Assembly (NCBI GenBank): GCA_964016885.1
Contig: OZ024741.1
Coordinates: 399,280,001 to 399,344,000, forward strand
Direction of reading: 5' to 3'
Source: Eledone cirrhosa
Lineage: Eukaryota
Length of the DNA stretch: 64,000 nucleotides
The notes beneath the pieces are model-generated. The model worked only from the letters and a program-made list of their open reading frames with translations. It was not told where the DNA came from and searched no databases. Positions 12,746 to 63,776 of the stretch are shown here, piece by piece. Each line of letters opens with the position of its first letter. The stretch's first letter is position 1. Both the position numbers and the translations under genes were made by a program.

Positions 12746-13094
<349 letters not shown>

Positions 13095-13096
<2 letters not shown>

Positions 13097-13679
13097 ACAC
13101 ACGATTTACTGTGTTTCTTACTGCATATATATTATTATAATGCTCAGTATTTATACTTAGAGCTTACTGATTACAGGGTTTCAGTAAGAGTTATTAACTC
13201 TAACTTTTATTTATATTTCGGCTCCCTCATGAGGTGAGCTTACTAAGTTGCGTGTGTTGGACTGTTGTTTCTAACCAATACACTCACACCACTTTTGACT
13301 TACGGCACACGAGGTGATGAATTCATTTTTCTGTGTGAACGTTAGTACTAGGTGTTTGTCGCATTTAATCAGATTCTCTCGCTGATGATGCCCATGGATT
13401 ATCTGTTGCAAACACACTCTGGGCGAAACAGATTATCCCTAATCTGTCCGAGAGATATAATTGTTATTGAGTCGGTTTGTATAATATAATTTTATTTTAT
13501 TTTATCATTCTGTCTGCTTCATGGTTAAATATTTCAAACAATTGTGGTTTTTCAACCCTCGTAATATTGGACACACGATTTACTGTGTTTCTTACTGCAT
13601 ATATATTATTATTATAATGCTCGGTATTTATACTTAGAGCTTATTGATTACAGGGTTTCAGTATGAGTTATTAACTCTA

Positions 13680-13690
<11 letters not shown>
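13095..13690 (+). mobile_element. Retrozyme-like non-autonomous element: ~120-bp terminal direct repeats (period 474) and an internal HHR
   Basis: GGACACACGATTTACTG... at 13095 and 13569; (TA)n on both sides; no coding capacity. Confidence 0.85.
13376..13454 (+). ncRNA. Type I hammerhead ribozyme, canonical core
   Basis: CTCTCG-CTGATGA-(T)GCCCA..TGGGC-GAAA-CAGATTA..TAATCTG-TC-CGAGAG; all three stems pair. Confidence 0.9.
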
Positions 13691-13733
<43 letters not shown>

Positions 13734-14000: not shown

Positions 14001-14138
14001 GTATATATATATATATGTATATATATATATGTATATAGTAATAATAATGAATTTGAAGACTAAAATCCAAAGAGGGCTCGATAAGGATAAATATATATCA
14101 AATATATAAGAACCGTAGAGCAAATATTTATTAAAATA

Positions 14139-14214
14139 ACAGATTAAAGTTTAAGCAAAGAATCGCTGCTTTCACCCTTAACGGGATCTTCTGAAACTAA
14201 GAAAGTCAATCTGT
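14139..14214 (-). ncRNA. pLTR hammerhead-like motif with variant core CAGAAGA
   Basis: Minus strand: ACAGATTGA..AGTTT-CAGAAGA-TCCC..GGGT-GAAA-GCA..TGC-TT-AAACT-TTAATCTGT. Confidence 0.7.
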
Positions 14215-15132
14215 AAACGCAGAACTGGATATTTCAAAAACGTTGCAACCGGAGGAAGACAGGAAGACGATACTTTGGTTAGTGGAAACGTTCGCTGGCT
14301 AAGAACCGAAAAAAGCGAATAAAATACGTCATTATTTGGAGCGGTGAAAAACAATTACGCGCAAAGACAGAACCACGTTTATGGTATAAAACAAGTCGTA
14401 GACTAATGTTCTCTTATGTGGTGCATAGAGACGTTCTCTGGCAATGAACGAAAAAAAACGAAGATAATACGTCATATGTGGAGCGTGGAGAAAAATAGCA
14501 CGCAAAGACAAAACCACGTAAATGGTATAGAAGAAGTCGTAGACTAAATTCTAACTAGGAGACCGAATGAATCTCCGCTACGGAGTTAAGAACAAAGTAA
14601 ATAAATACAATACAGAAGTAATAGAAATAAATAAATACATACACGCAAACAAATACCTACATAGACAAGCATACGCAAAAACTTACCATAGGTAAACAAA
14701 ACTACGCACATATAAATATGTGTGTGTGTGTGTAAGCGTGTATACAAATAAATAAATAATTATATAAACGTATATAAATAAATAAATACGTATATAACAA
14801 GCGCACACACATACCTACATGTAAATGCACGAATGTTCGGAGACGTAAGTCAACCAAAACATGAAGTACACATATACATACGCCCTACATACGTACGAAC
14901 CTGCATACTCACACAGACGCAAAACTCCCGTATACACATAGCCGAACCATATGTACCAAAATATATTAAAAAATTATACGCCATAACAATCAAATATACG
15001 TACGAGAAGGTATACGTACCTTCACAAAACATACGGATAATATATACTTACCTATGCAAATAAGTAAAGGTATAAACAAAACATATATTTAGCTCCCACA
15101 TCGAGACGTAAAATATCCACGTATAGATCGTA

Positions 15133-17258
15133 CTATCCGTTAGGGTATAACGTGGGGCTGTAATACAGGAAAGTTTTGTGCAATTTATGTTTACAAGCCG
15201 AAATTGCCTCAGATTTTTTGTTTAAGATGTGGTGTGTGGCGTAGAGTATTTCCAGGGCCTCAGCGGCGCAGAGGTCACATGGTTTTTTATTTCCGTTATA
15301 CGATCTAGCTCTAGCTAGGATCTCCCAGTGTAACTTATTTTGGGTGTGGTTGTCTTTTAGACTCCAGATATAAGCTGAAAGTGACGTCATATTCCTTCTT
15401 AGAGGGTAACGAAAAGAATGGGTATGCATGTAAAGACGCTGCTTGAATCTATTGGCGGTTAACCCTATGTAGGCCCTACGGGACGTGGGTGTTACAACCT
15501 TACATTTGTAGACAATGTTACTAGAGAGGCATTTCCCGGGTAGGGGGCAATCAACCCGATTCCTACAATTACAGTTAGTACTAACTACAGGGTTGCACGT
15601 GTTCCTACGGCTAGGTAGTTTAGCTAAATTTGAAGCTGTGATGCTATGTGCAAGGTTAGGAGTCGTAGAGTAAGAAATTTGAATAGTATTTCTATTAAAA
15701 ATTGTACTATATTTATGTGTAGGGAAAAATGCTTCGTAATAAGGGAAAGAAAGATCTTAGCTAATGGTGTGGCCACTTCCATATTATATAGTGGGTTATA
15801 CCAACAAATGCGACGGGATCTATTTCTTCTAGGTCTATTTTCGTACTCTGTATATGCTACCTTATCGACAAATCCACTTCGAGCAAGAGCTTCATTGTAA
15901 TAAGTGGAATGGTCGTTAAAAATACGCTCGTTGGTGGAAAGACGGGAAAGCCTCAACGAAACGCTTCTTACCAGGTTCTTGGTTATGCTGGCAGGTTGGT
16001 TGGAATGCTTACTTATGTAATTAAGCGTATCATTCGGCTTTCCATAGGGGTAAAACAACCCATTCAATAAGTTGAGGGTAACGTCGAGGTAATTAACGAC
16101 CGAGAGATTGGCCTCAACCTGTATAGAGAGGTTGAAGACTTTAAAGAAGGCTGTGAGTTCTTTTCTGAACCTGTCGCAAGCACGAGGTCCGCACTTAGTC
16201 ATGGTCAAAAGACCATCGTCACGGTACAAACCACCGCCCGCGTTGGGGAATTCGTCCTTGATAGAGAAAAGAAGGAAAAGGCCGATAAGATCAGTAACCT
16301 CCGCAGAATCACTGGCGCCCATACTCACGTCGAATGGGGTACTATTGGATTTTTTAATCCAAATAGAGTCGTCGAAATTAATCACCGACTTTCGGGCATT
16401 GAGGATGACATCAACTTCGAAATCCTTAACCACTGTGAGTGTTTTAGCGAAATTGATAGCTCTAAGGAGAAGTGGTAAAGTGATGGAGGAGTAGTAATTG
16501 TTGATGTCGAATTGGATAAAACGGCAATGTTCCTTGATACATATGCCGTTGAACCAATCAATCACCGCGAAGGAATTGTTCCACAGTGCAAGAGGGGCCA
16601 AACTTCTAATTTCAGGTATAATTCTATCAAGAATCGTCTTACTAAGTCTACCTAAATCGGACTTCGTAGGGTTAATAAGCCGAATAGAAAGGTTGTTCGG
16701 AAAATTGGATTTGTGATCTTTCATGGTAAAGTGGGGAGAAATAGGGTCCAGAGGTTCGGTCCGGTCCATGTTGAGATCAGATGTGATTTTAAACCCAGCA
16801 TCGTTGATTTCATTGATGACGCACCGATTAGTTTTACGGTAATCCTTAGTTACAGCATTATGTAGTAGTTGATGGTAAGTACTCCGCTCCACTTGATATA
16901 GGTTGCCAGTTTTGTCGGAATGGACGTGCACGGCATTAGAATCCTTAATAGAACGAATTCTATTCTTCAGGTCTTGCTGGAAGGAATTGCTCCTATTCCG
17001 AAATTTGATACTCCGAATGAGTTCCAAGACATCATTTTCGAAGGGTAGCAATGCTGGGTTACACGGGGGGTTATTATAGGTTTTAAATCCAAATTTATCC
17101 TGTTTGTTGTCTGCTTTTCGTGGATTATCGAAGTAAAAGGCCCGCCAACGCAACCTTTTAATGAACGCGTCTGTTTTCTGTATCAGGAGTTTTAGGTATG
17201 TTTTCCTGCTTGGTACGGGTATGTTCTTTGTAGAAATATTCAGATGTTGTTTCTGCAT
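15133..17258 (-). CDS. PLE reverse transcriptase / GIY-YIG endonuclease polyprotein (~708 aa if one frameshift near 15722-15729 is corrected)
   Basis: RT motifs FDINNYYSSI, MGASDSAE and YRDDGL; the shifted frame continues HKYSTIFNRN..CNCRNRVDCPLPGKC..IVY..YIG..CDLCAAE..ACKH without stops. Confidence 0.88.
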
Positions 17259-17403
17259 GATGAATATAAGTCAGTAGAGTGCTCAACCGAGGGAGCCAAA
17301 TAGTAATAATAATAAATTTGAAGACTAAAATCAAAAGAGGGCTCGATAAGGATAAATATATATCAAATATATAAGAACCGTAGAGCAAATATTTATTAAA
17401 ATA

Positions 17404-17479
17404 ACAGATTAAAGTTTAAGCAAAGAATCGCTGCTTTCACCCTTAACGGGATCTTCTGAAACTAACAAAGTCAATCTGT
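17404..17479 (-). ncRNA. 5' pLTR copy of the CAGAAGA hammerhead-like motif
   Basis: Same core and stems as 14139-14214. Confidence 0.7.
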
Positions 17480-17559
17480 AAACGCAGAATATATATATAT
17501 ATATATATACACATATATATACATATATATATATACATATATATATATACATATATATA

Positions 17560-18800: not shown

Positions 18801-19503
18801 GAAATGGTATATATTTTATCTTGTGATTCTATAGACATGTTTTATGATATATAGCTCTGATTATTTAATTTATTAATTTTTCATTGAGCCACAAAGTGAC
18901 CCGTTGCAAAACACGTATATATATATGTATATATATATGTAAACTTTTATATGTAATAATCTCCCATTAGGTTGAGATACAAATTTGGCTGTATTGTGCT
19001 GTGCTTTCTAGCAAAAATGCCACCAGTCGTAAGCAACTACCACACCCCTTCCAACCTGACCGCGACTACGTCACGATTCTTAGCCATTTTGAATGAATTC
19101 TTGGCGCGATCACTTTGGAAAATTTAGTGTCTAGATAAGAGCAAATCTCCTGATGAATCCGGTGCTCGAGTTTATATAGTTATTACATAATTATTGGAAA
19201 GCTCAAAATGCGGATGAAACCATGGTAGAGGTATTTAAATGTATTCTATTTTCTCCTAGTTTATTTTACACCTAATTCTGTTTAGTTGACTGTATCTGGA
19301 CGATTACGCTGTCGAAATATTCAATAAATATTCCGTTGTGGCCGACGCGAAGGGCTAATTTCGGTTATTTATTGGAAATTTCTTCATAGAAGCCTCATTC
19401 TCATAGCCTGGTCTATTCGATTTTTTATATAGTTAATTATGCTAATTGGGAGAGGAAATGGTATATATTTTATCTTGTGATTCTATAGACATATTTTATG
19501 ATA
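18797..19503 (+). mobile_element. Retrozyme-like element: ~55-bp terminal direct repeats (period 654) and an internal HHR
   Basis: GAAATGGTATATATTTTATCTTGTGATTCTATAGACAT at 18801 and 19455; TA/GA runs flank it. Confidence 0.8.
19143..19236 (+). ncRNA. Type I HHR with palindromic stem III (CCATGG) and long stem II
   Basis: ATCTC-CTGATGA-ATCCG...CGGAT-GAAA-CCATGG-TA-GAGGT. Confidence 0.8.
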
Positions 19504-19623
19504 TATATATATATATATATATATATAACGAAGGTAATGTGGTAAGGAACCAGAATTATGTGTCTCAACAACAAACGTTTGACCAATCCTTGTGACAATC
19601 ACTTTTACCATATATGGAATTAT

Positions 19624-19692
19624 CCCCTGAGAAGCTCGGCTATTCATAGTCCAGAATTAGCCGTCGAAACGGCTCGAACTCAGCCGTCGGGG
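19624..19692 (+). ncRNA. HHR of family H1, slightly degenerate core (CTGAGAA)
   Basis: CCC-CTGAGAA-..CGGCTA...TAGCCG..-GAAA-CGGCT..AGCCG-TC-GGGG. Confidence 0.65.
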
Positions 19693-19703
19693 TCCTACTC
19701 GTT

Positions 19704-19755
<52 letters not shown>

Positions 19756-22494: not shown

Positions 22495-25400
22495 TTGAGT
22501 CTCAGTCATTGATGTTATTTAACTGGAAAGTTTGTTGAAATGAATATCAAGCCGCTACCTGCAGCCTCAGATATTCAGGGTGTATCGGAGGGTTCTTGCT
22601 GTTCCCAGCAAGCATGCCCTTTGAAGTGTTCCAAAAAGCGGGGCTGGACTAATTTTCTTTAACCATCTTTGGAAACTCTTTGAGATAGTACCTAGTGCGC
22701 CTATGACAATCGGGACGACTCTGACTTCATGGCAGTTCCAAATCCTTTTTACCTCCCACTTTAAGTCCTGGTATCGGTTAATTTTCTCCCTCTCCTTCTC
22801 TTGCACTCTCGTGTCAAATTGGCAGGCTACATCCACAATCAGGCACGATCTTTTTTCCTTGTCCAAAACCACCAGGTCAGGCCTATTGTGTTCCAGTTTC
22901 TTGTCCGTCTGTATCCTAAAATCCCATAGCACCTTCACCTAATCGTTTTCTATCACCGACCCTGGCTTATGCTCATACCACTTCTCAGAATGTGGTAAAT
23001 TGTTTACTTTGCATAGGTGCCAGTGGATCACCCTGCCTATCACATCATATCTCCAGCCTTTATAGTGAGTCTGGGCTAGGTGTTAACACTCGGATACAAT
23101 GTAAGCCACAGTCTCCTCTCTCTCTCCACAGATCCTACACTTGGGCTAGCCTCCTCCTTTTAAATATGGTGTTTCACCCATTTCGTTCTGAGGGCCTGCT
23201 CTTGCGCAGCTATTAGCATTCCTTCTGTAGCTTTTTTAAGGTCTCCTCTTTTTAACCAGTTTCATGTTTGTGGATCTTTAAATTCAGTTTTCCTAAAGAA
23301 GGTACTTGTTATTTCCTCCTTGGACATCCCCTGGTCTATTGTCTTCTCCTTCAGTACAATTTTGAGCATTGGCTCCCTACTGTCAGTCACGTATTGGTGC
23401 AGGTTGTCTTTCTCCATCTGAACACAGTCTTCTATGCTGATAAGACCTCTTCCACTTTCAGATCTCTTTCAGTAGAGTCTATCGACATCACTCCTCTTGT
23501 GGAACATGTTGTAGATAGTCAATAGCTTCCTATTCTTCCTATCCATTTCTTCTTGTTCAGCAACATTCCATTTCAGAATTCCCGCACTGTACCTAATAAT
23601 AGACACAGCTCGGGAATGCACTGCACTTATGACATTCCTACTATTTAGATGTGATTTTAATACGCTCCTTACTCTCCTTATGTACTCAGATCTTATCAAT
23701 TCCTTCATGTTTTTGTTCTTGATGTCATCTGCCTCCAGAACACCTAAATATTTGTATCCTTTTTCAGTGTCAATTTCCTTTATCATCTCACCTATTGGTA
23801 CCTAGATTCCGTTGCTTCTGCTCAATTTACCCCTCTTCATCACTAGGACTCCACACTTATTAATACCAAATTCCATACATATATCATTGTTGAAAATACG
23901 GACAGTGTCAACAAGTACATCAAACTCCTTCTCACCACTCTTCCCAAAGCGATTAAGATCGTCCACGAAGAGGTGGTTGATGGCAAGCTCTCCTTTTCTC
24001 AACTTGTATCCTGCTCTCACTTTTCGCAATATAACGGTCAGGGGTATCAGGGCAAGGATAAACAACAAAGGGGACAGACTATCTCCCTTGAAGATACCTC
24101 TCTTGATCTTCACACCGCCCAAGGATTTTCCACCCGATGTTAACTCTGTTTCCCAGGAATTCATACTTTTGCTCAACAACTGTCTGATGTTATCTGCCAC
24201 CTTGAAGATCTCTAGGCTTTTGGTTATCCAAGAATGAGGAACCATGTCAAATGCCTTTTTGTAATCTATCCATCCCATGCCAAGATCAGTGTGTCTCCTC
24301 TTGCAGTTCCTCATTACCATCTTATCAATAAGTAACTGGTCATTTTTACCACGAGACTTCTTTCGGCATCCTTTCTGTTCGTCCGGTAACAATGCTTGTT
24401 AACAGTTTCCACATTACGGACAGACATGTGATAGGTCTATAGCTGGTAACATCATTACCCTTGATTCGGGCTTTCATTACCAGAATTGTGGTACCTTTTG
24501 TCAACCACTCTGGTACCTCACCCGACATCAAGCAGTCATTGAACATGGTTGTCAGTTTCGGGTGGAGGGATGTTATATTTTTAATCTAATACCCCTGCAC
24601 ACCATCTGGGCCTAGTGATTTCCAGTTGGTTAGTTGTTTGGCCTGCCCTTTAAGAGTTTCAACTGTGATACTCAAATCAGGTTGTTGGTGTGCTTGTTCA
24701 CTAATCTCCCTTTGAACTGTCTCAATCCACACTGCCTGATCATTATTTTCAACATCCTGCTCCCATATTCCTCTCCAGAATGGCTTAGTCTGTTCCGCCT
24801 CAGGGATCAAGTCGTTGCCTCTTTCTTTCCCTTCAAGCTGTCCAAACAACATCTGGTTGTTGTCAAACATGCGGTTCTGTCTATACTGACTGACTCTGTT
24901 CTCATACCGCCTAATCTTTGCACTTTTTGCGTTGCTTCAGTTCCTCTATGGTAATATTTAGTTTTTCCCCCCTAGTTTTGTACTTTATTTCCAATCTATC
25001 TTTAGTGTCTATGTTTTGTAATGTCCCATTCAGTACGGCTTTCCAATGTCTTTTCTCATTTCCTTGATTTGACCATTCAATCGTTTCTTCCACCAAGGTT
25101 CTGATCTTTCTTGTTTGTTGTTTCCTCTCGTTTTTATGCCAAGTAATTTCCTCACCGCATTTGCTGTTGCTTTGAGAATATTGTTGCATTGGTGAAGGTT
25201 CCTCGCCTCAAGGTATGGGATGACTTTGTTTACCTTAGCTCTTGTTTCTTTTAACTTTTTCTTGTCTACAAATCTTAGGTTCATAGGTTTTCCACTATCA
25301 TTGTTCATTTCATCTACCACTAAGTTCAGGATATCAACCAAATCTTGTCCTAGCCCGTCAGCATTCATTTCCTCAATGGCCGTATCTTTGTTCTAGGTGT

Positions 25401-25990
25401 TATTTATTTCAGCATTCAGATCATTGTCTGCTTTGGATGCTTTCTCAGGTCTCTCAACCTCTTCACCTTCATTTTCCACTGGCTCGCTTGCTTGACATAC
25501 TCCATCCATTAGTTCTTATTACCCGAGCCTGCCCGGCCAATTTTTGTTCATCTAATTTAAATACACCAATCTCGTTCCAGATGTTGTGCATCCGTTTCCT
25601 ATAGCCTTTTTCCATGGGGTTACTCTTCAGGTAACATTCCATGACAGTTCTATTCAATTCTTTCGTCCAGTTGGTTCTTGTCCCTTTCCTTCTTCTTCCT
25701 CCAACACCAGCAGTATTTGGATGACAGCCAGGTCCCTGCTGCTGGGCCAAGGAGCACTTGCTGGATGAGAGTCTTTCACATGACGTTCCAATCTCCTTTT
25801 CACCGTTATTCGAACTGTTTAGGTTCGAGATTTAAACACTCAAATCGAGGATTGGTGAATTTAGCGTGGCACCATCACGCTGTAGACGAACATAAATAAA
25901 TAAACAAATAAATAGATAAAAACTTGAAAAAATAAACATAAGTTTCATTGTAATGTTTGAATGTCTGACTTAGTTTTTTTTTCCTTTTTG
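22495..25990 (-). mobile_element. Degenerate near-full-length R4/Dong-like RLE non-LTR retrotransposon (copy A)
   Basis: Fragmented RT ([26 protein letters not shown]) and RLE (RPD..D..K..Y) ORFs with many stops, frameshifts and deletions; collinear with copy B. Confidence 0.9.
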
Positions 25991-26181
25991 TTTTTCAAGG
26001 CCAGTAACATCGGTTACTAGAGTTGTTGTTGCTGCTGCTGCTGTTTTTTGATTTTAACTACAAGGGAAGTAGGGGTTGTTGCGTTCAAAACTTTTGAAAT
26101 TTGTTTTTCTGTTGCTGTTGTGTTTGTTTTTGTCTGTGTTGTGTTCTGTAATTTTTCGACTTGTTGCTTATCATTATTATT

Positions 26182-26400
26182 GGTAGTATCGGTAGAGGGT
26201 CAGACGCCATGCTTTGACGCATAGAGTTACTGCCCTTGCCATTCTGAGTTCAAATCCCGCCGAGGTTAACTTTGCCTTTCATCCTTACGGGATCGATAAA
26301 ATAAAGTACCAGTAATACAATGGTCGATAAAATAAAGTACCAGTAATGCACTGGGATGATTGCTGGCCTTGTGCCAAAAGTAGAAGGAATTATTATTATT
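26182..26400 (+). mobile_element. Meta-like SINE with internal duplication
   Basis: Consensus match; GTCGATAAAATAAAGTACCAGTAAT present twice. Confidence 0.8.
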
Positions 26401-26968
26401 ATTTGACATCGTTTAAACTAAACATTTTGAGAGAGTTTAGAGATACAACAACAATAATTATTATGGTGTTGTTGTTACTGTTTGACCGAGTCACTAAATC
26501 AGTCTATTTATATCTTTTGCTGATTTCCTCGCTTCTAGTCATGTGTAGTGATACTACTACCATCCCTCTCTTAACAGGAGGTAGTGAGGGAATAGTGGTG
26601 GTAGTGATGATGTTGTTGCTGCTGTTAGTTTGTATCTAGCTAAATTGTTTGTGGTAGTGGTGGTGGTGGTGGCGGCGGTGGTGGTATTGGTGGTGAAATT
26701 ATTTGGCTGCTGTTTTCTTCTATTTGTGACCATTTGTAACCATTTCCTTTTTTGATTATACAATTTCTGACACAAAATTAAATATTAAATATTGAAGCTC
26801 GATGCCATAGTGTTATGCGTTGTCACTTCCTGATAGTGAAGACTACTATCTTATGTCCCATTTGTAATAAGAATTATTCTATCACAATTGTTTTAAATAT
26901 GTAAAAAATCAAAAACTTACGGGAGCGATTCCATAACACTCTATCCATCATGTGTGTAATCTTCCCCA

Positions 26969-27010
<42 letters not shown>

Positions 27011-27011
27011 T

Positions 27012-27210
27012 GGCGGTGGATTGGCAGTATCGGTAGAGGGTCGGATACTATACTTTGAAGCATAGAGTTACGGTCCTTGCCATTCTGAGTTCAAATCCCG
27101 CCGGGGTTAACTTTGCTTTTCATCCTTACGTGGTCGATAAAATAAAGTACCAGTAATGCGCTGGGTAATTGCTGGCCTTGTGCCAAAAAGTAGAAACAAT
27201 TATTATTATT
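27012..27210 (+). mobile_element. Full-length Meta-like SINE in (ATT)n
   Basis: Consensus match from head to tail. Confidence 0.85.
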
Positions 27211-27590
27211 ATTTGAAAAGGAAAATCAGGGTAGAGAGGGAAGTGCTCTCTTCCCAGCATTTTGTTGAAAGATGGGTGAGAGAGGCAAGAATGGCCCGAG
27301 TGAATGGGCCTACTCTGAGTATGTGCCTGTAAATTGAAGGTGTGAAACTGGGAGAGGGCACTTGCCCTGGTGATCAGGGTCACCGTGGCTTTTTTTAATG
27401 GGATTTCTCAACGATGGTCCTCGGAAGTCTCCCCCCTTTTGGGGAATTTTTCATTGTTTCTTTTTTGTTTCATCCTCTGTTTTTGTGTTTTTTTACACGC
27501 AGAAATGCCCATTTGTACCGTCCTGTTTTGTCCTGTACTGTCCTTAATGTCTCACTTTGTGTAAACCCTTGTGGTTAATAAAGAAAACAT
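27211..27590 (+). mobile_element. 3' end of a LINE, possibly L1/Tx1-like
   Basis: ORF end LKRKIRVEREVLSSQHFVERW.., T-rich 3' UTR, AATAAA, then (ATT)n; diverged reverse copy at 37441-37675. Confidence 0.5.
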
Positions 27591-27610
27591 TATTATTATT
27601 ATTATTATTA

Positions 27611-29055
27611 CAGCTGCATTTATCTTGCTTTATGTTCATACGAGTTATTACCAAGTCCCAACCAGTGACCTCAAGAGACAACAAGGTCCGCCATGTTCAA
27701 GAAAGAACATACATACTCACACATGCATCTTTAGGTGTTTAGACTTGTGATGTACTTATATTGACAGAATCTTCCTTAGTATATGGGCAGTTCCCATTAG
27801 TACTATCTTTTGTATTTCTCCTATACGCGGGTTTCCTGGGATTTGCGATAAGTAATCATTAGACCCCTTAGGTATCATTCCTAGAGCGCCTACAACCACT
27901 GGTATTGTTTTAGTTCTCAATTTCCACATTTTTCCAATTTCTATCTCTAGGTCCTTATACTTGCTAAATTTTTCAAATGTTTTTATAGATACATTCTTGT
28001 CTATTGGAACGGACATATCAATTAGCAGGCATACCCTTTTTTTAAAGTCCTTCAATATTATATCAGGTCTATTTGCATCTATTTTTCGGTCTGTTTGGAT
28101 GCTAAAGTTCCACAAGATTGCGATGTGATCTTTTTCAAGTATGGGAGGTGGTTGATGCTCCCACCAATTCTTTTGATGGGGCAGGTCAAAATGCTTACAC
28201 ATTATCCAATGTATGTATTGTGCAGCTCTGTCATGCCTGTTTAGGTATTCGGTTGGAGCTATAGGACTACACATTGAAATTATATGGTCAATGGTCTCTG
28301 GTTGTTTTTTACATACACGGCATAATGGGCTGCATCCATTTTTTATTATGTTGGCTTGGTAATTTTTTGTTGGCAGACACTGATCTTGTGCTGATATAAT
28401 CAGTCCTTCAGTCTCCGATTTCAGTCCAGAGGATGCCAACCACTGATCGGTTAAAGATTTGTCAACATCAGGATTGTTAGCTCGTTCTGGGTATTTTCCA
28501 TACAGAGGCTTTTCTTGCCATTTCTTAGCCAGTTTCTGTAGCAGTTCTTTCTTTGCAGTTACTTTTACCTGCTTTGCTTTTTCTGTGTTTTCCATTTCAG
28601 CAGTAAATGGGACTTCTGAAATTTGTAGTCCATTACTGTATCTTTGTGCATCTTTTGTAATGGAGTATGATCTTTTGATGCTTTCGTGTTTCAAAACGAG
28701 TTTGATCATCCAATCATGTGATTCCCTTAGATATGTAGATAATCCAATTGTTGCAGTTTTCAACGCAATGTCTAACTGGATTAACCCACGCCCTCCTTCT
28801 TCCTAGGGAGATATATTCTATCTGTATCTGCCTTAGAGTGATGCATTCTGCGCATGGTTAAGAATTTTCGAATTTTTCTATCGAGCCTACGGATCTCTGT
28901 GCTTGACCAGTTGATGACATTGTAACTGTAGGTTACTACTGATATGGCATCGATCCTATTCCTTGCACTCAATTCCGTTCTTAAGATTGCTCTTACTCTG
29001 CGGTAAAATTCCTTCCTTATCCTTTCCCTCATTGTCGAGTGCTTGATTCGTCTCC
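27611..29055 (-). mobile_element. 5'-truncated R4/Dong-like element of a second family (copy C)
   Basis: CRVCKKQPETIDHIISMC zinc knuckle, RHD, RPD and LID..K..KY RLE motifs; flanked by (ATT)n. Confidence 0.88.
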
Positions 29056-29071
29056 TTTACAAACACCTAGA

Positions 29072-29136
<65 letters not shown>

Positions 29137-29156
29137 CTTGAATCTCAGTCATTGAG

Positions 29157-29223
<67 letters not shown>

Positions 29224-29235
29224 TTATTGTTATTA

Positions 29236-32200
29236 CTCCTTGAGTCTCAGTCATTGATGTTAGTTAACTGGAAAGTTTGTTGGAATGAATATCAAGCCAC
29301 TACCTGCAGCCTCAGATATTCAGGACGTATCGGAGGGTTCTTGCTGTTCCCAGCAAGCATGCCTTTTGAAGCGTTCCAAAAAGCGTGAAGGGGCCGATTT
29401 TCTTTAACCATCCCTGGAAACTTTTGGAGATAGTCCCCAGTGCGCCTATGACAATCGGGATCACTTTGACTTCATGGCATTTCCAAATCCTTTTTACCTC
29501 CCACTTTAAGTCCTGGTATCGGTTAATTTTCTCCCTCTCCTTCTCTTGCACTCTCGTGTCGAATGGGCAGGCCACATCCACAATCAGACACGATCTTTTT
29601 TCTTTGTCCACAACCACCAGGTCAGGTCTATTGTATTCCAGTTTCTTGTCCGTCTGTATCCTAAAATCCCACAGCACCTTCACCTGATCGTTCTCTATCA
29701 CCGCCTCTGGCTTATGCTCATACCATTTCTCAGAATGTGGTAAATTGTTTACTTTGCACAGGTGCCAGTGGATCACCCTGCCCATCACACCATGTCTCCA
29801 GCCATTATAGTGGGTCTGGGCTAGGTGTTTACACTCGGATACAATGTGAGCCACAGTCTCCTCTCTCTCTCCACAGATCCTGCACAGTGGGCTAGCCTCC
29901 TCCTTGTAGATATGGTGTTTCAACCACTTCGTTTTGAGGGCCTGCTCCTGCGCAGCCATTAACATTCCTTCTGTAGCCTTTTTAAGGTCTCCTCTTTTCA
30001 ACCAGTTCCATGTCTGTGGATCTCTAAATTCAGTTTTCTCAAAGAAGGTACTATGAAGGGATTTTTCCTGAAGGCTGCTCTTTCTCCTTGATGTTATTTC
30101 CTCCTTGGACATCCCCTGGCCTATTGTCCCCTCCTTCAGTACATTTCTGAGCATTGGCTCCTTACTATTAGTCACGTATTTGTGTAGGTTGTTTTGTTTT
30201 TCTCCATCTGAACACAGTCCTCTCTGCTGATAAGACATCTTCCACCCTCAGATCTCCTTAAGTAGAGCCTATCGACATCACTCCTCTTGTGGAACATGTT
30301 GTAGATAGTCAATAGCTTCCTAGTCTTCCTATCCATTTCTTTTTGTTCAGCAACATTCCATCTCAGAATTCCCGCACTGTACCTAATAATAGACACAGCT
30401 CGGGAATTTACTGCGCTTATGGCATTTCTGCTGTTCAGATGTGACTTCAATACGCTCCTTACTCTCCGAATGTATTCAGTTCTTAACAATTCCTTCTTTT
30501 TTTGTTCTTTATGCCATCAGCCTCCAGAACGCCCAAATACTTGTATCCTTCCTCAGAGTCAATTTCCTTTATCATCTCACCTGTTGGTATCTGGATTCCG
30601 TTACTTCTGTTCAACCTACCCCTCCTCATCACAATGACTCCACACTTACTAATACCAAATTGCATACATATATCACTGCTGAAAATACGGACAGTGTCAA
30701 CAAGCACATCCAACTCCTTCTCACTCTTCCCGAAGAGCTTAAGATCGTCCATGAAGAGGAGGTGATTGATGGTAAGCCCTCCCTTTCCCAACCTGTATCC
30801 TGCTCTCACTTTTCGCAGTACACTGGTCAGGGGCATCAGGGCAAGGACAAACAACAGAGGGGACAGGCTATCTCCCTGGAAGATACCTCTCTTGATCTTC
30901 ACGCTTCCCAAGGATTCTCCAGCTGATGTCAACTCTGTTTCCCAGGACCTCATACTTTTGCCCAACAACTGTCTGATGTTATCTGCCACCTTGAAGATCT
31001 CCAGGCTTTTTGTGATCCAAGAATGAGGCACCATGTCAAATGCCTTTCTGTAGTCTATCCATCCCATGGCAAGATCAGTGTGTCTCCTCTTGCAATTCCC
31101 CATTACCATCTTATCAATAAGTAACTGGTCCTTTGTACCACGTGACTTCTTTCGGCATCCTTTCTGTTCGTCCGGTAACAAGTTGTTTGTGTGGAGGTGA
31201 TGGTAGATTTCCTCAGACACAATGCTCGTCAACAGTTTCCACATTACGGACAGACATGTGATAGGTCTATAGTTGGTAACATCATTACCCTTGATTCGGT
31301 CTTTCATTATCAGAACTGTGGTACCTTTTGTCAACCACTCTGGTACCTCACCTGACATCAAGCAGTCATTGAACATGGTTGTCAGTTTCGGGTGGAGGGA
31401 TGTTATATTTTTAATCCAATACCCCTGCACACCATCTGGGCCTGGTGATTTCCAGTTGGTTAGTTTTTTGGCCTGCCCTTTAAGAGTTTCAACTGTGATA
31501 CTCAAATCAGTTTGTTGGTGTGCCTGTTCACTGAACTCCCTCTGTACTGTCTCAATCCACCCTGCCTGGTCATTATGTCTAACATCCTGCTCCCATATTC
31601 CTCTCCAGAATGTTTTAGTTTGTTCCGCCTCAGGGATCAAGTCGTTGCCTCTTTCTTTCCCTTCAAGCTGTCCAAACAGCATCTTCTGGTTGTTGTCGAA
31701 CATGCGGTTCTGTTTATACTGACTGACTCTGTTCTTGTATCACCTGATTTTTGCACTCTTTGCTACAATGCGTTGCTTCAGTTCCTCTATGATCATATTT
31801 AGCTTTTTCCTCCTAGTTTTGTACTTTATTTCCAGTCTATTTTTAGTGTCTATGCATTTTAGTGTCCCATTCAGTAGGGACTCAAGCTTTCCAATGTCAT
31901 TTCACATTTCCCTGATTTGACCACTCAGTCGTTTCTTCCACCAAGGCTCTGCTCTTTCTTGTCTGTTGTTTCCTCTCGCTTTTATACCAAGTAGTTTCCT
32001 CACCATATTTGCTGTTGCTTTGAGGATATTGTTGCACTGGTGAAGGCTCCTCGCCTCAAGGTATGGGATGACTTTGTTTACCTTAGTTGTTGTTTCTTTT
32101 AACTTTTTCCTGTCTACAAATCTTAGGTTCATAGGTCTCCCACTATCATTGTTCAATTCATCTACCACTAAATTTAGGATATCAACCAAATCTTGTCCTA

Positions 32201-32965
32201 GCCCGTCAGCATTCATCTCCTCAGTGGCCGTATCTCTGTTCCAGGTATTATTTATCTCAGTATTCAGATCATTGTCTGCTTCGGGTGGTTCCTCCGTTCT
32301 CTCGACCTCTTCACCTTCATTTCCCACTGGCTCGTTTGCCTGGCATACTCCACCCTCCATCTCTAAGCTAATCTCTTTGCTCAGTTCCTCCAGTTCCAGC
32401 TCGCTTATCCACCCATTAGTTCTTATTACCCGAGCCTGCCCAGCCAATTTATGTTCATCTAATTTAAATAGACCAATCTCGTTCCAGATGTTATGAATCC
32501 GTTTCCTATAGCCCCTCTCCTTAGGGTTACTTTTCAGGTAACATTGCATAACAGTTCTATTCAATTCTTTCGTCCAGTTGGTTCTGGTCCCTTTCCTTCT
32601 TCCGACACCAGCAGTATTTGGTTGACAGCCAGGTCCCTGCTGCTGGACCAGGGAGCACCTGTTGGGTGAGAGTCTGTCACATGACGTTCTAGTCTCCATT
32701 TCACCGTTATTCGAACTGTTTAGGTTCGACATTTAAACACTCTTATCGAGGATTGGCGAATGTATGGTTACATAACCACCGGTGGATTCACCGTCTCCGG
32801 TGGTTGCGTCACTCCACGTGGCTCTTGTGTGGCATTATCACGCTGTAGACGAACACAAATAAACAAACAAACAAACAAACAGGCAGAAAATAACCCAAAA
32901 ATGAATAAGCATAAGTTTCATTGTAATGTAGTGTTCGAATGTCTGACTTAGTTTTTCCCTTCCTT
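29236..32965 (-). mobile_element. Full-length R4/Dong-like RLE retrotransposon (copy B) in (ATT)n
   Basis: Single original ORF 32732-29312 (~1140 codons); 3' UTR ends in (TAA)n. Confidence 0.92.
29312..32732 (-). pseudogene. RT-RLE polyprotein disrupted by two TGA stops and two frameshifts
   Basis: SPGPDG, YRPITCL, GIFQGDSLSP, FMDD, CRICGEREETVAHIVSEC and RPD motifs; TGA near 31902 and 31740; frameshifts near 30490 and 30190. Confidence 0.88.
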
Positions 32966-43979: not shown

Positions 43980-44053
<74 letters not shown>

Positions 44054-44259
44054 TGAAGTTTCCGTTGAAAATTGAAAAAGTCATAGGAGAGAAGAGTGCT
44101 CTATGTAAGTACCAGAGCAAAATTTAATGTATAATAAACAATACAATATAATTACCTCATTACCAGAGGTTTCCCGAATAAGACGAATACGAAAAACGTC
44201 CTCATTCGTTAATCGGACAAGGCAATTTAAAACAGTGAAATATTTTAAAAGTCTCTTCC

Positions 44260-45428
44260 GTAGTACATTGGTATAATAATATTAAAGATAAAAATAGTTC
44301 TAGATTCACCCAATTAGACATTGTAGATTTCTACCCGTCTATCACTCAAACACTTTTAGCGAAAGCCTTAAATTTCGCTAGAAAGTTTAGCAATATTTCT
44401 GATATTGAAGAGAATGTCATCTTGCATGCTAGAAACACTCTGCTCTTTACTGATAATGACACTTGGGTAAAAATATCTAACCCAGAGAACCCATTCGATG
44501 TCTCAATGGATTCTTTTGACAGTGCTGATGTTTTTGATTTAGTCGGCCTATTCCTCCTACACACACTTAAAGAAAAATTCCCTAACCATATTTTTGGGCT
44601 TTATCGCGACGATGGTCTAATACTTTCCCATACCACCATAGGCCATAACTCAGATAGATTAAGGAAAGACTTAATAAAAACCTTCGCTAGTTTTAATCTT
44701 AAAATTACTATTGACACTAACCTTCCCAATGTTAATTTTCTAGATATAAACATAGATCTGCCTACTACTTCTTATAAACCATACCATAAAACTAATAAAA
44801 ATTTAAAATATATAAATAAAGGCTCTTGCCATCTTCCTATGGTTTTTAAAAACCTTATCCCTAATATTAGCCGTAGGATCTCCACCCTCTCTTCCTCAGA
44901 AGCTATTTTCAATAAGGCATCCCCTACTATAATAAAGCCCTTCAAAATAGCGGATTTAGCGAAACGATTAAGTACATACACAACAATACTAACTCTTTTA
45001 AACATAATAATAGGAAAAGAAAAAAATAATCTGGTTCACCCCCCCCCCCCTACTAACAGTTAAAACTAATGTAGGCAAAACATTCCTAGAGCTCTTAGAT
45101 AAACATTTCCCTAGAACACATAGATACTATAAGATCTTCAATAGAAACTGTGTCAAAATTAACTACTCCTGCAGTCCCCCTATTAAATCTTATATCATCA
45201 ATAAGAAATCACCCAGAGAACATCAAAATTGCTCCTGTGGAGTCAAAAGTGAATGCCCATTACAAGGTAAATGCAACACCAAAATCATTGTATATGCGGC
45301 TAAAGTGACAACCATCAGCAACAACCTACCAGCCACCAGCGAACGATATGTGGGTATGACACAAGACAAATTCAAAACGCGTTATTACTCACATGTCGCA
45401 TCTTTTCGACATCCAGAAAAAAGATTCC
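44260..45428 (+). pseudogene. PLE RT/GIY-YIG remnant with frameshifts and a ~400-bp deletion at its end
   Basis: LDIVDFYPSI, YRDDGL, CSCGVKSECPLQGKC..IVY..YVG. Confidence 0.85.
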
Positions 45429-46548
45429 ATTAAGACCCTCCCCTACTTTTCGATTCACTTACCTAATATCTTCACATTCCACATTTTACTTCCCCATTTT
45501 CTTTCACTACCTGATAACACTTGTCACTTGCGTTTTCCACTCCAGATATATTCTGTTGTTTCGCAGCCGATTTCATATTTGTACTCATTTATTCATACGG
45601 CTGGTTTATAATCTGTATCTATGCGGGTGAGTGTGCATATGTGTGTATACGTTCTGTATATGTATACGAACGCCTCCGTATGTGTGCGTGCGTACGTATA
45701 TATATGTGTGTGTGTTTTTATATCTGTTTTTTTCTATCTTTTTTTTTACATACTTATTTATACGTGTGTGTGTATGCGGGTGAATGTATGTGTATGTATA
45801 TGTGTGTATATGTATACGTATGTATGGGTGTGTATGTATATATGTATATGTATGTATGGTCGCGTACGTACGTGTGATTAGATATACATGTGGCAATATA
45901 TATATATACGTGCCTCGTGTGTATATATGTACGCATGCATGCGCTTTTGTCTGTACGTATTTGTGTGTATAAATATTTATATATATATATATGTGTGTAC
46001 GTGCGTACCTATGTTTGTTTTCTTTTTTCTAGTGTTAATTGATTACTTTCTCTTTGATTTAAAATTTTTTTTCATTCTCATATATTGTTTCATTTTTATA
46101 TATATATCGAGAATGACACTTCTTTTTACTATTACACTCCCTTCCCTCTTTATCTTCCGCATATAAGTGACCGCGCGTGTGTGTGTGTGTGTTTATACGC
46201 GTGCTTTCATACTCGTATGTGTATTTAATACCTGTATCTGGATGCGTGTTAACTATATTATCTTACAATTTCCTTTTCAACTCATATTATATACGTATTT
46301 GTGGTCACATATACACAAATATACTTGCCCTCATATATGTACTTACGCACACATTTTCACCATACACATGCATTTGTACATACACACATATGTATATTTG
46401 AGAGTGTATATACATACATATACACATACCCTAACTATATTTCCTTATTTTTTTATATATCTCTTGCATTACTTTTATTTATATATTTTTTGCCCGTTAA
46501 ACTCTTGCCTTTCTTGAGGAGACTTTTCAAATATTTCACTATGTTTTA

Positions 46549-46626
46549 AATTGCCTTGTCCGATGAACGAATGAGGACGTTTTTCGTATTCGTCTTATTC
46601 GGGAAACCTCTGGTAATGAGGTAATT
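46549..46626 (+). ncRNA. PLE family 2 pLTR HHR with CCGATGA core
   Basis: AATTGCCTTGT-CCGATGA-long stem II-GAAA-CC(TCT)GG-TA-ATGAGGTAATT. Confidence 0.75.
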
Positions 46627-46663
46627 ATATTGTATTGTTTATTATACATTATATATATATATA

Positions 46664-47292
46664 TAACAACTAGAAATTGATTAACATATAAATAAACATA
46701 TGAAACAATCACAGGTGATAATTTTTACAAGAGTGTAAGCACACATAGCTAGGTAGGTAACTAAATAAAGTTAACTAGAACTTCAAAAATATTTACCTTA
46801 TAATATGATTAATCTTCCTGGTATATATTCCATTAAAGAAATATATTTCACCAATTAATCGATTGGTAAAAGACGGAGGCCGGTACTTGGATTCTCAACA
46901 AGGAAGAAGTCCAGCGATCTGTGTTTACGCATTAAGTTTAAATCAGCGACTGGCCAGTAACACGTGCTGTATACTAAAAATACACACATCGTACCAGCTT
47001 CGTCCCAGTGGCGTGAATAGGGTTATCGACAACTAGAAACAGCAGTCAAGTGCTTTCAACAGAGTTAGCTCTACAATTAAGGAGCCGTATTCATATATCT
47101 ATATCCAAAATTAAGATAAATCAAGATGAATTTAATCTAAATCAAAATTATGGGTGTCATGCCAGAAAGGCATGCGCCATATCACCCATAAAATAAGCTC
47201 TAAGATTCTAATGAATAGGTCCGAGCATTTTATAACAACTAGAAATGGATTAACATATAAATAAACATATGAAACAATTACAGGTGATAATA
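46664..47292. mobile_element. TA-adjacent element with ~60-bp terminal direct repeats (period 569)
   Basis: TAACAACTAGAAAT.GATTAACATATAAATAAACATATGAAACAAT.ACAGGTGATAAT at 46664 and 47233; no clean HHR seen. Confidence 0.7.
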
Positions 47293-47370
47293 TTTCTTTC
47301 CTGTTGCAGTAATTTTAATTTTAATTTTAATTTTGATTTAGATTAAATTCATCTTGATTTATCTTTATTT

Positions 47371-47421
<51 letters not shown>

Positions 47422-49809: not shown

Positions 49810-49812
<3 letters not shown>

Positions 49813-50001
49813 CGATGGAAATGTGGTAAGGAACCAGGTGGACCATAACGCACCAAAGTCCTCAATACTTAGGGTATTAGAGTGGGTAATAGGAACGAGT
49901 AGGACCCCGACGGCTGAGCTCAAGCCGTTTCGACTTCTAATTCAGAATTAGCCGTCGAAACGGCTTGAGCTCAGCCGTCGGGGTCCTACTCGTTCCTATT
50001 A
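49810..50001 (-). mobile_element. Family H1 fold-back element
   Basis: Tail plus hairpin, homologous to 12841-13059. Confidence 0.8.
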
Positions 50002-56260: not shown

Positions 56261-56378
56261 TACAATACGAAACCTACAGTCAGTAAGCACCTCTTAACCA
56301 AATATACACCCCAACCCACTACCCCTACTCCATCCTCCCACTCCCACCAACACCACCCTTTCTCTATAAGTTTGGACA

Positions 56379-58367
56379 AACTGTGTCAAAATTAGCTACT
56401 CCTGCGGCCCCCCTATTAAATCTTATATCATCAATAAGAAATCACCCAGAGAACATCAACATTTTCTCCTGTAGAGTCAAAAGCGAATGCCCATTACAAG
56501 GTAAATGCAACACCAAAATCATTGTATATGCGGCTAAAGTGACAACCATCAGCAACAACCTACCACCCACCAGCGAACGATATGTGGGTATGACACAAGA
56601 CAAATTCAAAACGCCTTATTACTCACATGTCGCATCTTTCCGACATCCAGAAAAAAGATTCACAACAGCTCTGGCTAGCAGAATATGGGATTTGAAAGAC
56701 CAAGGTATCCAATATAAATTGGATTGGTAAATTTTGAACCAATCTAAAGAATATGCAAGAGGAACAAGAAGATGCACACTCTGCATAAGTGAAAAATATT
56801 GGATTTTACAGAACCTTAAATCACCAAAAACCTGCCTAAATACAAAAAACAGAAATGTTCACCAGTTGGTCACACATGAAATCATACTTGCTTTCCAGCT
56901 CATATAAACTTAACTCACTTTCAGATACTTATCCTCCATAAACTCTTATTCTTCACTTTCCTTAAATTATCCTCTTTACAGACTTCTCTTTCTGATTTAC
57001 TTTCATTTTTAAATTTATTTTTAATTTAATTTTTATTTTTATTTTTACTTCACATTTACCAATAAGCCCCTCCTCCTACTTTTCGATTTACTTCCCTAAT
57101 ATCTTCACATTCCACAGTTTACTTTTCCATTTTCTTTCACTACCTGATATCACATGTCACTTGCATTTTCCACTCCAGATATATTCTGTTGTTTCGCAGC
57201 CGATTTCATATTTGTACTCATTTATTCATACGGCTGGTTTATAATCTGTATCTATGCGTGTGAGTGTGCATATGTGTGTATACGATCTGTATATGTATAC
57301 GAACGCCTCCGTATGTGTGCGTGCGTAGTATATATATGTGTGTGTATGTGTGTTTTTATATCTATGTTTTTATATCTATGTTTTTTACATACTTATTTAT
57401 ACGTGTGTGTGTATGTGGGTGAATGTATGTTTATGTGTATGTATATGTGTGTATATGTATACGTATGTATGGGTGTGTATGTATATATGTATATATATAT
57501 ATAGTCGCGTACGTGCGTGTGATTAGATATACATGTGGCGATATATATATATACGTGCCTCGTGTGTATATATGTACGCATGCATGCGCTTTTGTCTGTA
57601 CGTATTTGTGTGTATAAATATTTATATATATATATGTGTGTGTACGTGCGTACCTATGTTTGTTTTCTTTTTTCTAGTGTTAATTGATTACTTTCTCTTT
57701 GATTTAAAAATGTTTTTCATTCTCATATATTGTTTCATTTTTATATATATATCGAGAATGACACTTCTTTTTACTATTACACTCCCTTCTCCCTTTATCT
57801 TCCGCATATAAGTGACTGCGCGCGTGTGTGTGTGTGTTTATACGCGAGCTTTCATACTCGTATGTGTATTTAATACCTGTATCTGGATGCGTGTTAACTA
57901 TATTATCTTACAATTTCTTTTTCAACTCATATTATATACGTATTTGTGGTCACATATACACAAATATACTTGCCCTCATATATGTACTTACGCACACATT
58001 TTCACCATACACATGCATTTGTACATACTCACATATGTACATTTGTGAGTGTATATACATACATATACACATACCCTAACTCTATTTCCTTATTTTTTCA
58101 TATATCTCTTGCATTACTTTTATTTATATATTTTTTTCCCGTTAAACTCTTGCCTTTCTTGAGGAGACTTTTCAAATATTTCACTATGTTTTAAATTGCC
58201 TTGTCCGATGAACGAATGAGGACGTTTTTCGTATTCGTCTTATTCGGGAAACCTCTGGTAATGAGGTAATTATATTGTATTGTTTATTATACATAAAATT
58301 TTGCTCTGGTACTTACATAGAGCACTCTTCACTCCTATGACTTTTTCAATTTTCAACGGAAACTTCA

Positions 58368-58372
<5 letters not shown>
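56379..58372 (+). mobile_element. 5'-truncated PLE family 2 copy (GIY-YIG remnant, long 3' UTR, pLTR)
   Basis: Collinear with 45146-46651; ECPLQGKC..IVY..YVG..CTLCISEK with a premature TAA at 56728. Confidence 0.9.
58194..58271 (+). ncRNA. PLE family 2 pLTR HHR (CCGATGA)
   Basis: Same sequence as 46549-46626. Confidence 0.75.
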
Positions 58373-60276: not shown

Positions 60277-60280
<4 letters not shown>

Positions 60281-60474
60281 AAAATGTTCAACCCCGAAGG
60301 CAGAGCTCAAGCCGCTTCGACGGCTTGAGCTCTGCCTCCAGAAACAGCCGTCGAAACGGCTTGAGCTCTGCCGTCGAGGTTGAACATTTTCCTATTATCC
60401 ACTCTATTGCCCTAAGTATTGAGTACTCTGGTGCGTTATGGTCCATCTGGTTCCTTACCACTTTTCCTTCATTA
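60277..60474 (+). mobile_element. Family H1 fold-back element
   Basis: Hairpin plus tail, TA-flanked. Confidence 0.8.
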
Positions 60475-62528: not shown

Positions 62529-62701
62529 TAGGAAAATGTTCAGGACCCCGACGGCAGAGCTCAAGCCGTTTCGACGGCTATTAACGACTTGAGCTCAGCC
62601 GTCGGTGTCCTGAACATTTTCCTATTACCCACTCTACTACTCAAAGTATCGAGTACTCTGGTGCGCTATGGTCCACCTGGTTCCTTACCACACTTCCTTC
62701 G

Positions 62702-62704
<3 letters not shown>
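62529..62704 (+). mobile_element. Family H1 fold-back element
   Basis: Hairpin plus tail, TA-flanked. Confidence 0.8.
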
Positions 62705-62739
<35 letters not shown>

Positions 62740-62876
62740 AATGAGTTATTTGGTTTGTTGATTATTCAACAAAGTTAATTTTACAACAGATTAGAAGCAC
62801 TCAACAAGATTTATCTGGAGTATCATTAATATAAATAATATTAATAAATGGAAAATATCTTTATAAAACCATATTT

Positions 62877-62935
62877 ATTTTATTATACGTATTTCAAGGG
62901 TACTAATATTTAAGTACGCTTTCGTCAGATAAAAT
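62877..62935 (-). ncRNA. Type I HHR (family H3) with TACGTA stem III
   Basis: ATTTTAT-CTGACGA-AAG.GTACT..AGTAC.CTT-GAAA-TACGTA-TA-ATAAAAT. Confidence 0.85.
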
Positions 62936-63223
62936 ATAATAATTGGTGTAAAGATATCTTCATATGAACTTAATGTTATAAGTTCAGTGAGGATATCTAT
63001 ATATGAATCCCTGGTTCAATCGGGAGGTGTAACCACTGTAAGGTACTCAATTAGTGGAGTGTAATCATCATGTTTAATACTGAAATGGGGTCTACAGGAA
63101 TAGAACTGTTTCATTCAAAAGAAATAATTATGAAATCTTGATGATTTCTTTTGAATGAAACAGTTGTAGTCCCGCAGAAGCAATTTCTATATTAAACATG
63201 ATATATATATATATATATATATA

Positions 63224-63657
63224 TACAATATTAAATAAATGGAAAACTATATTTATAAAACCATATCTATTTCATTATATATATTTCGGGGATATCATAT
63301 TAACAATATGCTATGCCTTCATCAGACAAAATACAATATAAACAGTTTTATAGATAAATATATTCGACATACCGTAATAAACATCAACTTCATTTGAAGA
63401 GGTTTACTCTAGCAGTAAACCTAGAGGTTACCGTAATAAACATCAACTTCATTTGAAGAGGTTTACTGCTAGAGTAAACCTCTTCAAATGAAGTTGATGT
63501 TTATTACGGTATGTCGAATATATTTATCTATAAAACTGTTTATATTGTATTTTGTCTGATGAAGGCATAGCATATTATTAATATGATATCCCCGAAATAT
63601 ATATAATGAAATAGATATGGTTTTATAAATATAGTTTTCCATTTATTTAATATTGTA
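63224..63657. mobile_element. Fold-back family H3 element carrying two opposed HHRs (63269-63332 minus, 63549-63612 plus)
   Basis: ~200-bp inverted arms; ATTTTGT-CTGATGA-stem II-GAAA-TATATA-TA-ATGAAAT. Confidence 0.85.
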
Positions 63658-63741
63658 AATATACTCCAAGTATTTGTCGAGTGCTTTTATATCAGTTATA
63701 AATATTTACTAGTTGTAACCCAACAATTTTAAATATAACTT

Positions 63742-63776
<35 letters not shown>

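Follow-up and report, generated by a model that had tools for sequence, protein, structure and literature searches.

A short non-coding insert with an internal hammerhead motif in Eledone cirrhosa, probably a Hydra-type Penelope-like element copied over more than one turn

The locus studied is an insert of about 600 bases, lying in a window of 64,000 nucleotides (the whole stretch of DNA analysed, to which all coordinates refer). It is made of a retroposed multi-copy unit of 474–477 nt, present for a total of 1.256 turns. The first repeat (13095..13216, plus strand, 122 bp) is a 5′-truncated second turn, or pseudo-LTR, and the second repeat (13569..13693, plus strand, 125 bp) is the 3′ end of the insertion, called end B, which runs into (TA)n. 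When the two are aligned, 119 of 126 columns are identical; 4 substitutions are present, as well as a 3-nt insertion in the second repeat, and the start-to-start spacing is 474 nt before this insertion and 477 nt after it. The left (TA)n target tract (13058..13094) also adjoins the 3′ end of a PLE-like insert on its other side, and the right one extends from about 13685/13689 to 13731. Terminal direct repeats 474 nt apart, TA tracts on both sides and about 1.25 turns had all been reported in an earlier note made from the sequence, and these points were borne out. The (TA)n flanks carry little weight alone, because 90 such tracts are found in the 64-kb window.

The insert holds no protein-coding frame, stops being present in all six frames, and its GC content is 34.6%. 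A 34-codon frame starting in the ribozyme core was rejected as a gene: indels found in loop III among members of the family would break it. By inspection of the sequence, neither a PBS nor a PPT adjoins the repeats, and the repeats have no CA end. Pol III boxes and a plus-strand polyA signal were looked for in the insert and not found, and the 64-kb window contains no second copy of it.

Between the repeats, motif scans and shuffles identified a type I hammerhead (13375..13455, plus strand), predicted to cut after C13448. Stem I is 7 bp long (13375–81/13449–55), stem II 5 bp and stem III 8 bp, and the core is composed of CUGAUGA at 13382, GAAA at 13425 and GUC before the predicted cut. Two features are odd, an extra U (U13389) between A9 and G10.1, and a loop II of 25 nt. 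An extra nucleotide after A9 is described as a hallmark of PLE hammerheads (PMC4209133). Not one of 20000 mononucleotide shuffles of the insert contained even a weaker hammerhead motif, on either strand. Rfam searches over the window returned no hammerhead match at gathering score, and none among the 67 weak matches obtained at E≤5. In the family reads described below, none of the 38 best-supported variant positions (taken from the best 40 of 114 variants) fell in the 50 core and stem positions (P=0.012), and such a perfect core, kept family-wide, speaks for a ribozyme that would be active. Of the textbook hammerhead that the earlier note had placed in the non-repeated middle, the motif and its mid-unit position stand, while the word textbook does not, given the extra U, the 25-nt loop II, the lack of an Rfam match and a hammerhead fold that differs from the predicted minimum-energy fold (MFE).

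What the folds predict in its place is a pairing of loop II with a strand located just upstream of the hammerhead (13352..13370, plus strand), by 16 bp in three helices. Pair probability between 13397–13415 and 13352–13370 is 0.88–0.96 in both circular and linear folds, stems I and II drop to 0.01, and 4.0 kcal/mol would be needed to reach the hammerhead fold. At all prefixes tried, the predicted block was already formed before the ribozyme was complete. Such an early block, together with the opening cost of 4.0 kcal/mol, means that cleavage may be rare: on this prediction, the ribozyme blocks itself by way of its long loop II. The duplex itself is modestly unusual only, since 43 of 1000 shuffles matched or beat it. 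In the family reads, the majority allele A13408 keeps or adds loop II pairs, and so do, in a hand alignment, the changes found in two consensuses of loose ends, each drawn from two contigs; all these supporting changes are one-sided. A second partner for loop II (13396–13407 with 13427–13438) was dropped, as it was dominant only in short pieces. In about 40% of hammerheads, stems I and II are joined by a pseudoknot that activates the ribozyme (PMC3088659), and part of the 13352–13370 pairing may instead activate the ribozyme in this way, a role left possible by folds that cannot model a stem I/II pseudoknot. The circular fold of the unit has a z-score of −2.65 (0 of 100 shuffles as good), and the minus strand one of −3.35.

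Relatives of the unit were sought in public sequencing runs. One sample is represented by contigs (runs X1 and X2), and two others carrying the same species label by RAD reads (X4 and X5); the runs contain 0.44–0.50 of the sequence words, and the sampled organism may be a relative. Alignment was to one non-redundant unit (13155–13631), which has both insert ends inside. In X1, X2, X4 and X5 respectively, 437, 428, 508 and 407 records aligned, mostly 90–99% alike. The unit is therefore a multi-copy family, with at least 400 records in each run, and not the single-copy local duplication that the earlier note had set against its own reading. Summed word depth in X1 is 2.2–3.7k at 13219–13346 and rises to 22–30k at 13523–13586, a measure that is not a copy number (single listed pieces have 6–11). 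Pattern scans of metagenome contigs (49 loci) and viral contigs (7 loci) yielded no relative among the 56 loci, the best match being 17 nt long.

Two ends were detected among the best 24 of 200 loose ends. At 13216, 8 X2 contigs pass into (TA)n, and 64 and 62 RAD reads leave the unit at 13215, probably at one locus. A second TA-rich end was found at 13606 (1 X1 contig, 19 X5 reads), and we take this position (plus strand) as a probable alternative 3′ end, called end A. If it is one, this suggests that 13607–13693 would be an optional PLE tail; alternatively, these loose ends could come from an expanded internal TA tract. The head-to-tail junction is crossed in the family: plus-mate depth in X4 is 15–16 at 13203, 13208, 13220, 13230 and 13243, and X1 keeps 2178/4107 from 13208 to 13220. 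No indel was seen at the 13216/13217 junction or the 13448/13449 cut site among the best 12 of 15 indels, and no joint was listed at either place. Neither a tandem array nor a copy carrying two hammerheads turned up in these runs, whose short reads and contigs would not reveal one. On the 5′ side, X1 depth is 27.9k at 13555–70 versus 21.8k at 13571–86. Because depth does not fall left of 13569, the start of the first repeat is a truncation point rather than the edge of an LTR. The fixed-length LTRs with TG..CA ends named in the earlier note as the contrary outcome were not what we found, as most of the depth continues 5′ of 13569 and TG..CA ends are absent. Its expectation for homologues, a fixed 3′ end with variable 5′ overlap, was answered in part, by a conserved 3′ end abutting TA and a head-to-tail junction, with no fixed 5′ boundary. 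RAD read ends at 13320–23, 13462 and 13563, all on AATT, were taken as enzyme artefacts, and for this reason no 5′ truncation was read from the loose ends before 13563 and 13421. At 13421, 35 and 32 RAD reads start with the 3′ strand of stem II, and the letters upstream of it are mixed; a sister family in which stem II is longer may be behind them, or chimeras formed at the cut site.

A frameshifted Hydra-clade Penelope-like element (PLE) lies 350 bp to the right of the insert (14038..17488, minus strand), with RT and GIY-YIG-type domains and the motifs RWR, DKT, YRDDG, CxCx5C and AYIG. RWR, DKT and CxCx5C are marks of the Hydra clade as defined in PMC8557442, and the Hydra identity of this neighbour is given by the motifs plus a by-eye likeness to File S7 of the same source. 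It matches RT-like eukaryotic clusters; Pfam at E≤1 gave no informative family for five PLE ORF pieces, nor did a PDB search with one of them. Its layout begins with (TA)n, followed by 190 bp that repeat its own 3′ end (98.4%), then the body, the 3′ end, and (TA)n again. Both of its hammerhead copies (17458 and 14193) carry U4A with an intact cut site. A 141-bp repeat is present in its 3′ UTR. A second Hydra-type PLE is found in two copies (44050–46649 and 56287–58371, plus strand), with U4C in both cores and the cut site intact; it has an inverted 5′ copy with a 77-nt tail at 44050–44234. In sequence, the insert has only the junction motif (see below) in common with the PLE at 14038–17488, and no extended match to an autonomous family was found in the window. 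This neighbour shows only the type that a helper would have.

These neighbours bear on a further claim of the earlier note, that an intact hammerhead inside the copy is the signature of a circRNA retrozyme. It was not supported: ORF-bearing Hydra PLEs with U4-altered cores also keep the cut site, and PLE RT, when purified, takes uncleaved RNA and initiates within it, with no need for ribozyme cleavage (PMC11167929).

The rest of the window is animal repeat DNA. Scanning the whole window for hammerheads gave 8 matches, versus 0 in 10 shuffles; two further type I hammerhead-like motifs lie at 19150 and 21033 (plus strand). To the left of the insert, a palindrome (12844–13057) looks like two PLE 3′ ends in inverted orientation, with the 3′ half of a hammerhead and an 80-nt tail with ACTC...GAGT, and is not a MITE; its relatives are at 19528–19705, 49812–49999, 60279–60472 and 62531–62702. 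At 62737–63745, two PLE ends that bear hammerheads (63325 minus, 63556 plus) again stand in inverted orientation; their 205-nt arms show 99% complementarity, and one more motif is located at 62928 (minus). A small non-coding partial tandem of period 569 (46666–47372, minus strand) carries motifs A and B (see below) and is about 65% identical to the insert around the junction; scans found no hammerhead in it. Decayed non-LTR retrotransposons (RVT_1, zf-RVT) extend over 22570–32732 (minus strand), with a C-terminus that we presume to resemble a restriction-like endonuclease of R2/R4 type. Finally, a high-copy SINE-like repeat of 140–180 bp, which we take to be akin to an octopus SINE, is found at 2573–2713 and at least 13 other places.

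The feature in common between the insert and its PLE neighbour is a short stem. Directly behind the 3′ end of the unit lies a GCUC-N11-GAGC stem (motif B, 13221..13239, plus strand), which is present in the MFE, and behind end A a GCUC-N14-GAGC stem (motif A, 13619..13640, plus strand), whose first-repeat copy is at 13142–13163. Motif A has a pair probability of 0.68–0.81 in whole-unit folds and is absent from the MFE of a 65-nt piece. In the PLE at 14038–17488, GGCTCCCTC...GAGC stands directly behind the first repeat (17297 minus, before the ATG), as at 13220.

To see how common this arrangement is, 60 nt beside each side of the 90 TA tracts (180 ends) were taken, and copies running on past the end were sought in the window; self-hits and copies also ending in TA were dropped, while 5′ truncation ends and satellites were included. 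The pattern RCTC-N7–24-GAGY occurred within 16 nt at 12 of 53 distinct run-on sites, versus 0.97% of 20000 random positions, and at 12 of 36 when low-complexity sites were left out. Since the pattern was defined after seeing 5 of these 12 positive sites, the count to retain is that of sites new after its definition, 7 of 48, where about 0.5 was expected, several of the 7 being copies of one family. By reading, 9 of the 16 sites folded have the stem in their MFE; covariation in it is partly imposed, because the pattern itself restricts the R/Y combinations. Several families of the window have two TA-abutting ends 77–94 nt apart, which fits two RT starts bounding a tail (PMC11167929). By eye, the full GCTC...GAGC is present in 3 of the 6 Hydra consensi of File S7 (PMC8557442), behind the hammerhead in Hydra-2_Amil and Hydra-2_Ajap, and twice before the ORF in Hydra-1_Ajap. 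Hydra-1_Crog has the variants GCCC...GGGC and GCTC...GAGG, Hydra-1_Obim the first half only, and the incomplete Hydra-1_Amil consensus lacks the motif. We did not find it in published literature, and the words hairpin and stem-loop are absent from the main texts of PMC8557442 and PMC3846280.

Judged from these positions, the motif likely marks an internal start of reverse transcription. Because the insert stops short of motif B on its 3′ side, the template would have continued past that end. A broader proposal, which we put forward tentatively, is that RCUC...GAGY is a clade-wide docking and start signal of the Hydra PLE RT, the insert being a minimal circRNA parasite composed of this signal and a hammerhead which, once ligated, would shut itself off by way of loop II. 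As part of it, and just as speculatively, the presence of the motif twice would give the two 3′ ends and the tail.

According to PMC8557442, Hydra-clade PLEs insert in (TA)n and carry hammerheads, and PLEs show partial tandems, 5′ truncation, tails and (TA)n targeting. Because its layout and junction motif match those of the Hydra PLE at 14038–17488, its target is (TA)n, and its hammerhead has the extra nucleotide after A9, we assign the insert with high confidence to the non-coding Hydra-type PLEs, or animal non-LTR retrozymes, with an internal RT start; retrozyme and non-autonomous PLE are here one class.

As to how the copy was made, the reading we prefer, with a probability of about 50%, is that of a 5′-truncated, 1.26-turn copy of a Hydra-type PLE, read from a ribozyme-made RNA circle. 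A master locus with at least two hammerheads would be transcribed and cut to unit length, and a host ligase would close the unit RNA into a circle. Loop II would then pair with 13352–13370 and keep the circle from being cut again. The Hydra PLE protein would bind motif B or A, nick (TA)n and prime at the UA-rich stretch 5′ of the motif, after which the RT would run across the ligated cut site, then over the point where it began, and stop after 1.26 turns. The insert itself would be a daughter and not a master, because it holds one hammerhead and two would need 1.67 turns. In favour of a circle, comparable units in coral, mussel and axolotl make circles, as seen by Northern and RT-PCR (PMC7229834). 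Against it, cleavage failed in 8 of the 9 Xenopus retrozymes that had been predicted (bioRxiv 10.64898/2026.07.22.740005). The alleles of the insert were compared with those of the family. Both repeats share minority alleles, namely G at 13095/13569, where 92–99.8% of the depth is A, G13597 and T13208, while the two differences between repeats that could be checked in reads are each private. Among the variants listed, private change is about 1.5% in the repeats and the middle alike (2/124 and 5/352 nt). Shared alleles with private differences fit repeats that were identical at insertion; a homogeneous array would fit too.

The circle reading is slightly favoured over one in which the RT copied linear, uncleaved RNA transcribed straight through a head-to-tail array, with the hammerhead folded off and the same class and internal start, an alternative we hold to be a serious one, if short of an even chance. 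An intact hammerhead does not prove a circle, because PLE RT copies uncleaved RNA from internal starts; in vitro, unprocessed RNA is its main substrate, and ribozyme mutants insert normally (PMC11167929). Moreover, the partial-tandem layout can probably arise without a circle, since the neighbouring PLE has this layout and U4A in both hammerheads. Linear read-through also agrees with the hammerhead being predicted off in linear folds (P about 0.99 for stems I and II), and with retrozyme families forming arrays (PMC7229834). It would, however, leave unexplained the perfect core and the 8-bp stem III kept in the family, and each round would yield fewer units than its mother, so that arrays would need some other renewal.

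The other ways to obtain such a structure fare less well. A partial tandem could also come from an RT that switched to another molecule after copying one linear RNA of unit length; this we consider improbable, although jumping has been invoked for PLEs (PMC3846280). The fact, noted above, that no indel or joint is among those listed at 13216/13217 and 13448/13449, the rare alleles common to both repeats, unlikely for a random second RNA, and an insertion 3′ end that is internal to the template, with motif B beyond it, all argue against a jump. Template jumping of the R2 type is otherwise known. A small LTR element, either a TRIM or a plant-type LTR retrozyme with 122-bp LTRs, would account for the terminal direct repeats, and the first repeat does start with TG once it is extended by one base into the TA tract; in the absence of a CA end, a PBS and a PPT, with a type I hammerhead outside the repeats and with depth continuing 5′ of 13569, this has hardly any probability left. 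A local DNA duplication, or a chance arrangement beside a lone hammerhead, is equally improbable: the lack of a second copy in the window speaks for it, but the junction is crossed by reads and contigs of three samples with other alleles, and motif and layout match those of Hydra PLEs. For the family a local duplication is refuted, and it could apply only to the history of the insert locus itself.

Neither the class nor the circle model is new; PLEs were suggested in 2014 to be copied from a circle over more than a unit (PMC4209133), and retrozymes in 2020 (PMC7229834). What the insert brings is a 480-nt RNA with which open questions become testable, namely how PLE RT picks an internal start, and whether the template is circular or linear. 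The motif offers an exact target for mutation, and ties a retrozyme-like unit by sequence to one particular PLE clade. In addition, a self-block as predicted may answer why animal retrozyme circles escape being cut again, a question left open by PMC7229834.

Among known systems, plant LTR retrozymes (PMC4918200) resemble the insert by their terminal repeats, hammerhead, and ribozyme blocked by self-pairing. Their type III hammerheads, one in each LTR, and their PBS/PPT are absent from the insert, where the hammerhead is of type I and outside the repeats; they also have 4-bp TSDs, which would be unreadable inside (TA)n. Chlamys PLEs such as MRC1 (PMC8557442) are likewise non-autonomous PLEs with a pseudo-LTR mistaken for an LTR, but they are algal, belong to a different clade and, unlike the insert, mostly lack canonical hammerheads. 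The Poseidon PLE of Anolis (PMC11167929) has an AT-rich target, as the insert does, and would also have in common with it two internal RT starts bounding a tail and an uncleaved hammerhead template; its start, determined in vitro, is in an AC-rich stem-loop inside the ORF, whereas those we infer for the insert are UA-rich ends just 5′ of a different, conserved stem. Hydra PLEs (PMC8557442) share the (TA)n target, the pseudo-LTR tandem, the hammerhead upstream of the 3′ end and the GCUC...GAGC motif. The insert probably also has an optional tail like theirs, which would be about 85 nt long versus 30–40 described. The insert differs from autonomous Hydra PLEs in having no RT/GIY-YIG ORF, and its loop II of 25 nt and stem III of 8 bp compare with 3–10 nt and 3–4 bp in the Hydra rows of File S2; its cut site is 158 nt before end A, versus 21–35 nt in the two neighbouring PLEs. 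Animal non-LTR retrozymes (PMC7229834; bioRxiv 10.64898/2026.07.22.740005) form tandem arrays, while the insert is a dispersed 1.26-turn copy with one hammerhead, and most metazoan retrozyme circles are predicted to leave the ribozyme free, while that of the insert is predicted to be self-blocked. Its unit is slightly above the 170–400 nt of PMC7229834 and within the 51–972 of bioRxiv 10.64898/2026.07.22.740005. Like the insert, these retrozymes are short, AT-rich, non-coding multi-copy units with the same type I hammerhead and without LTR, PBS or PPT, and they have been proposed to ride on PLEs.
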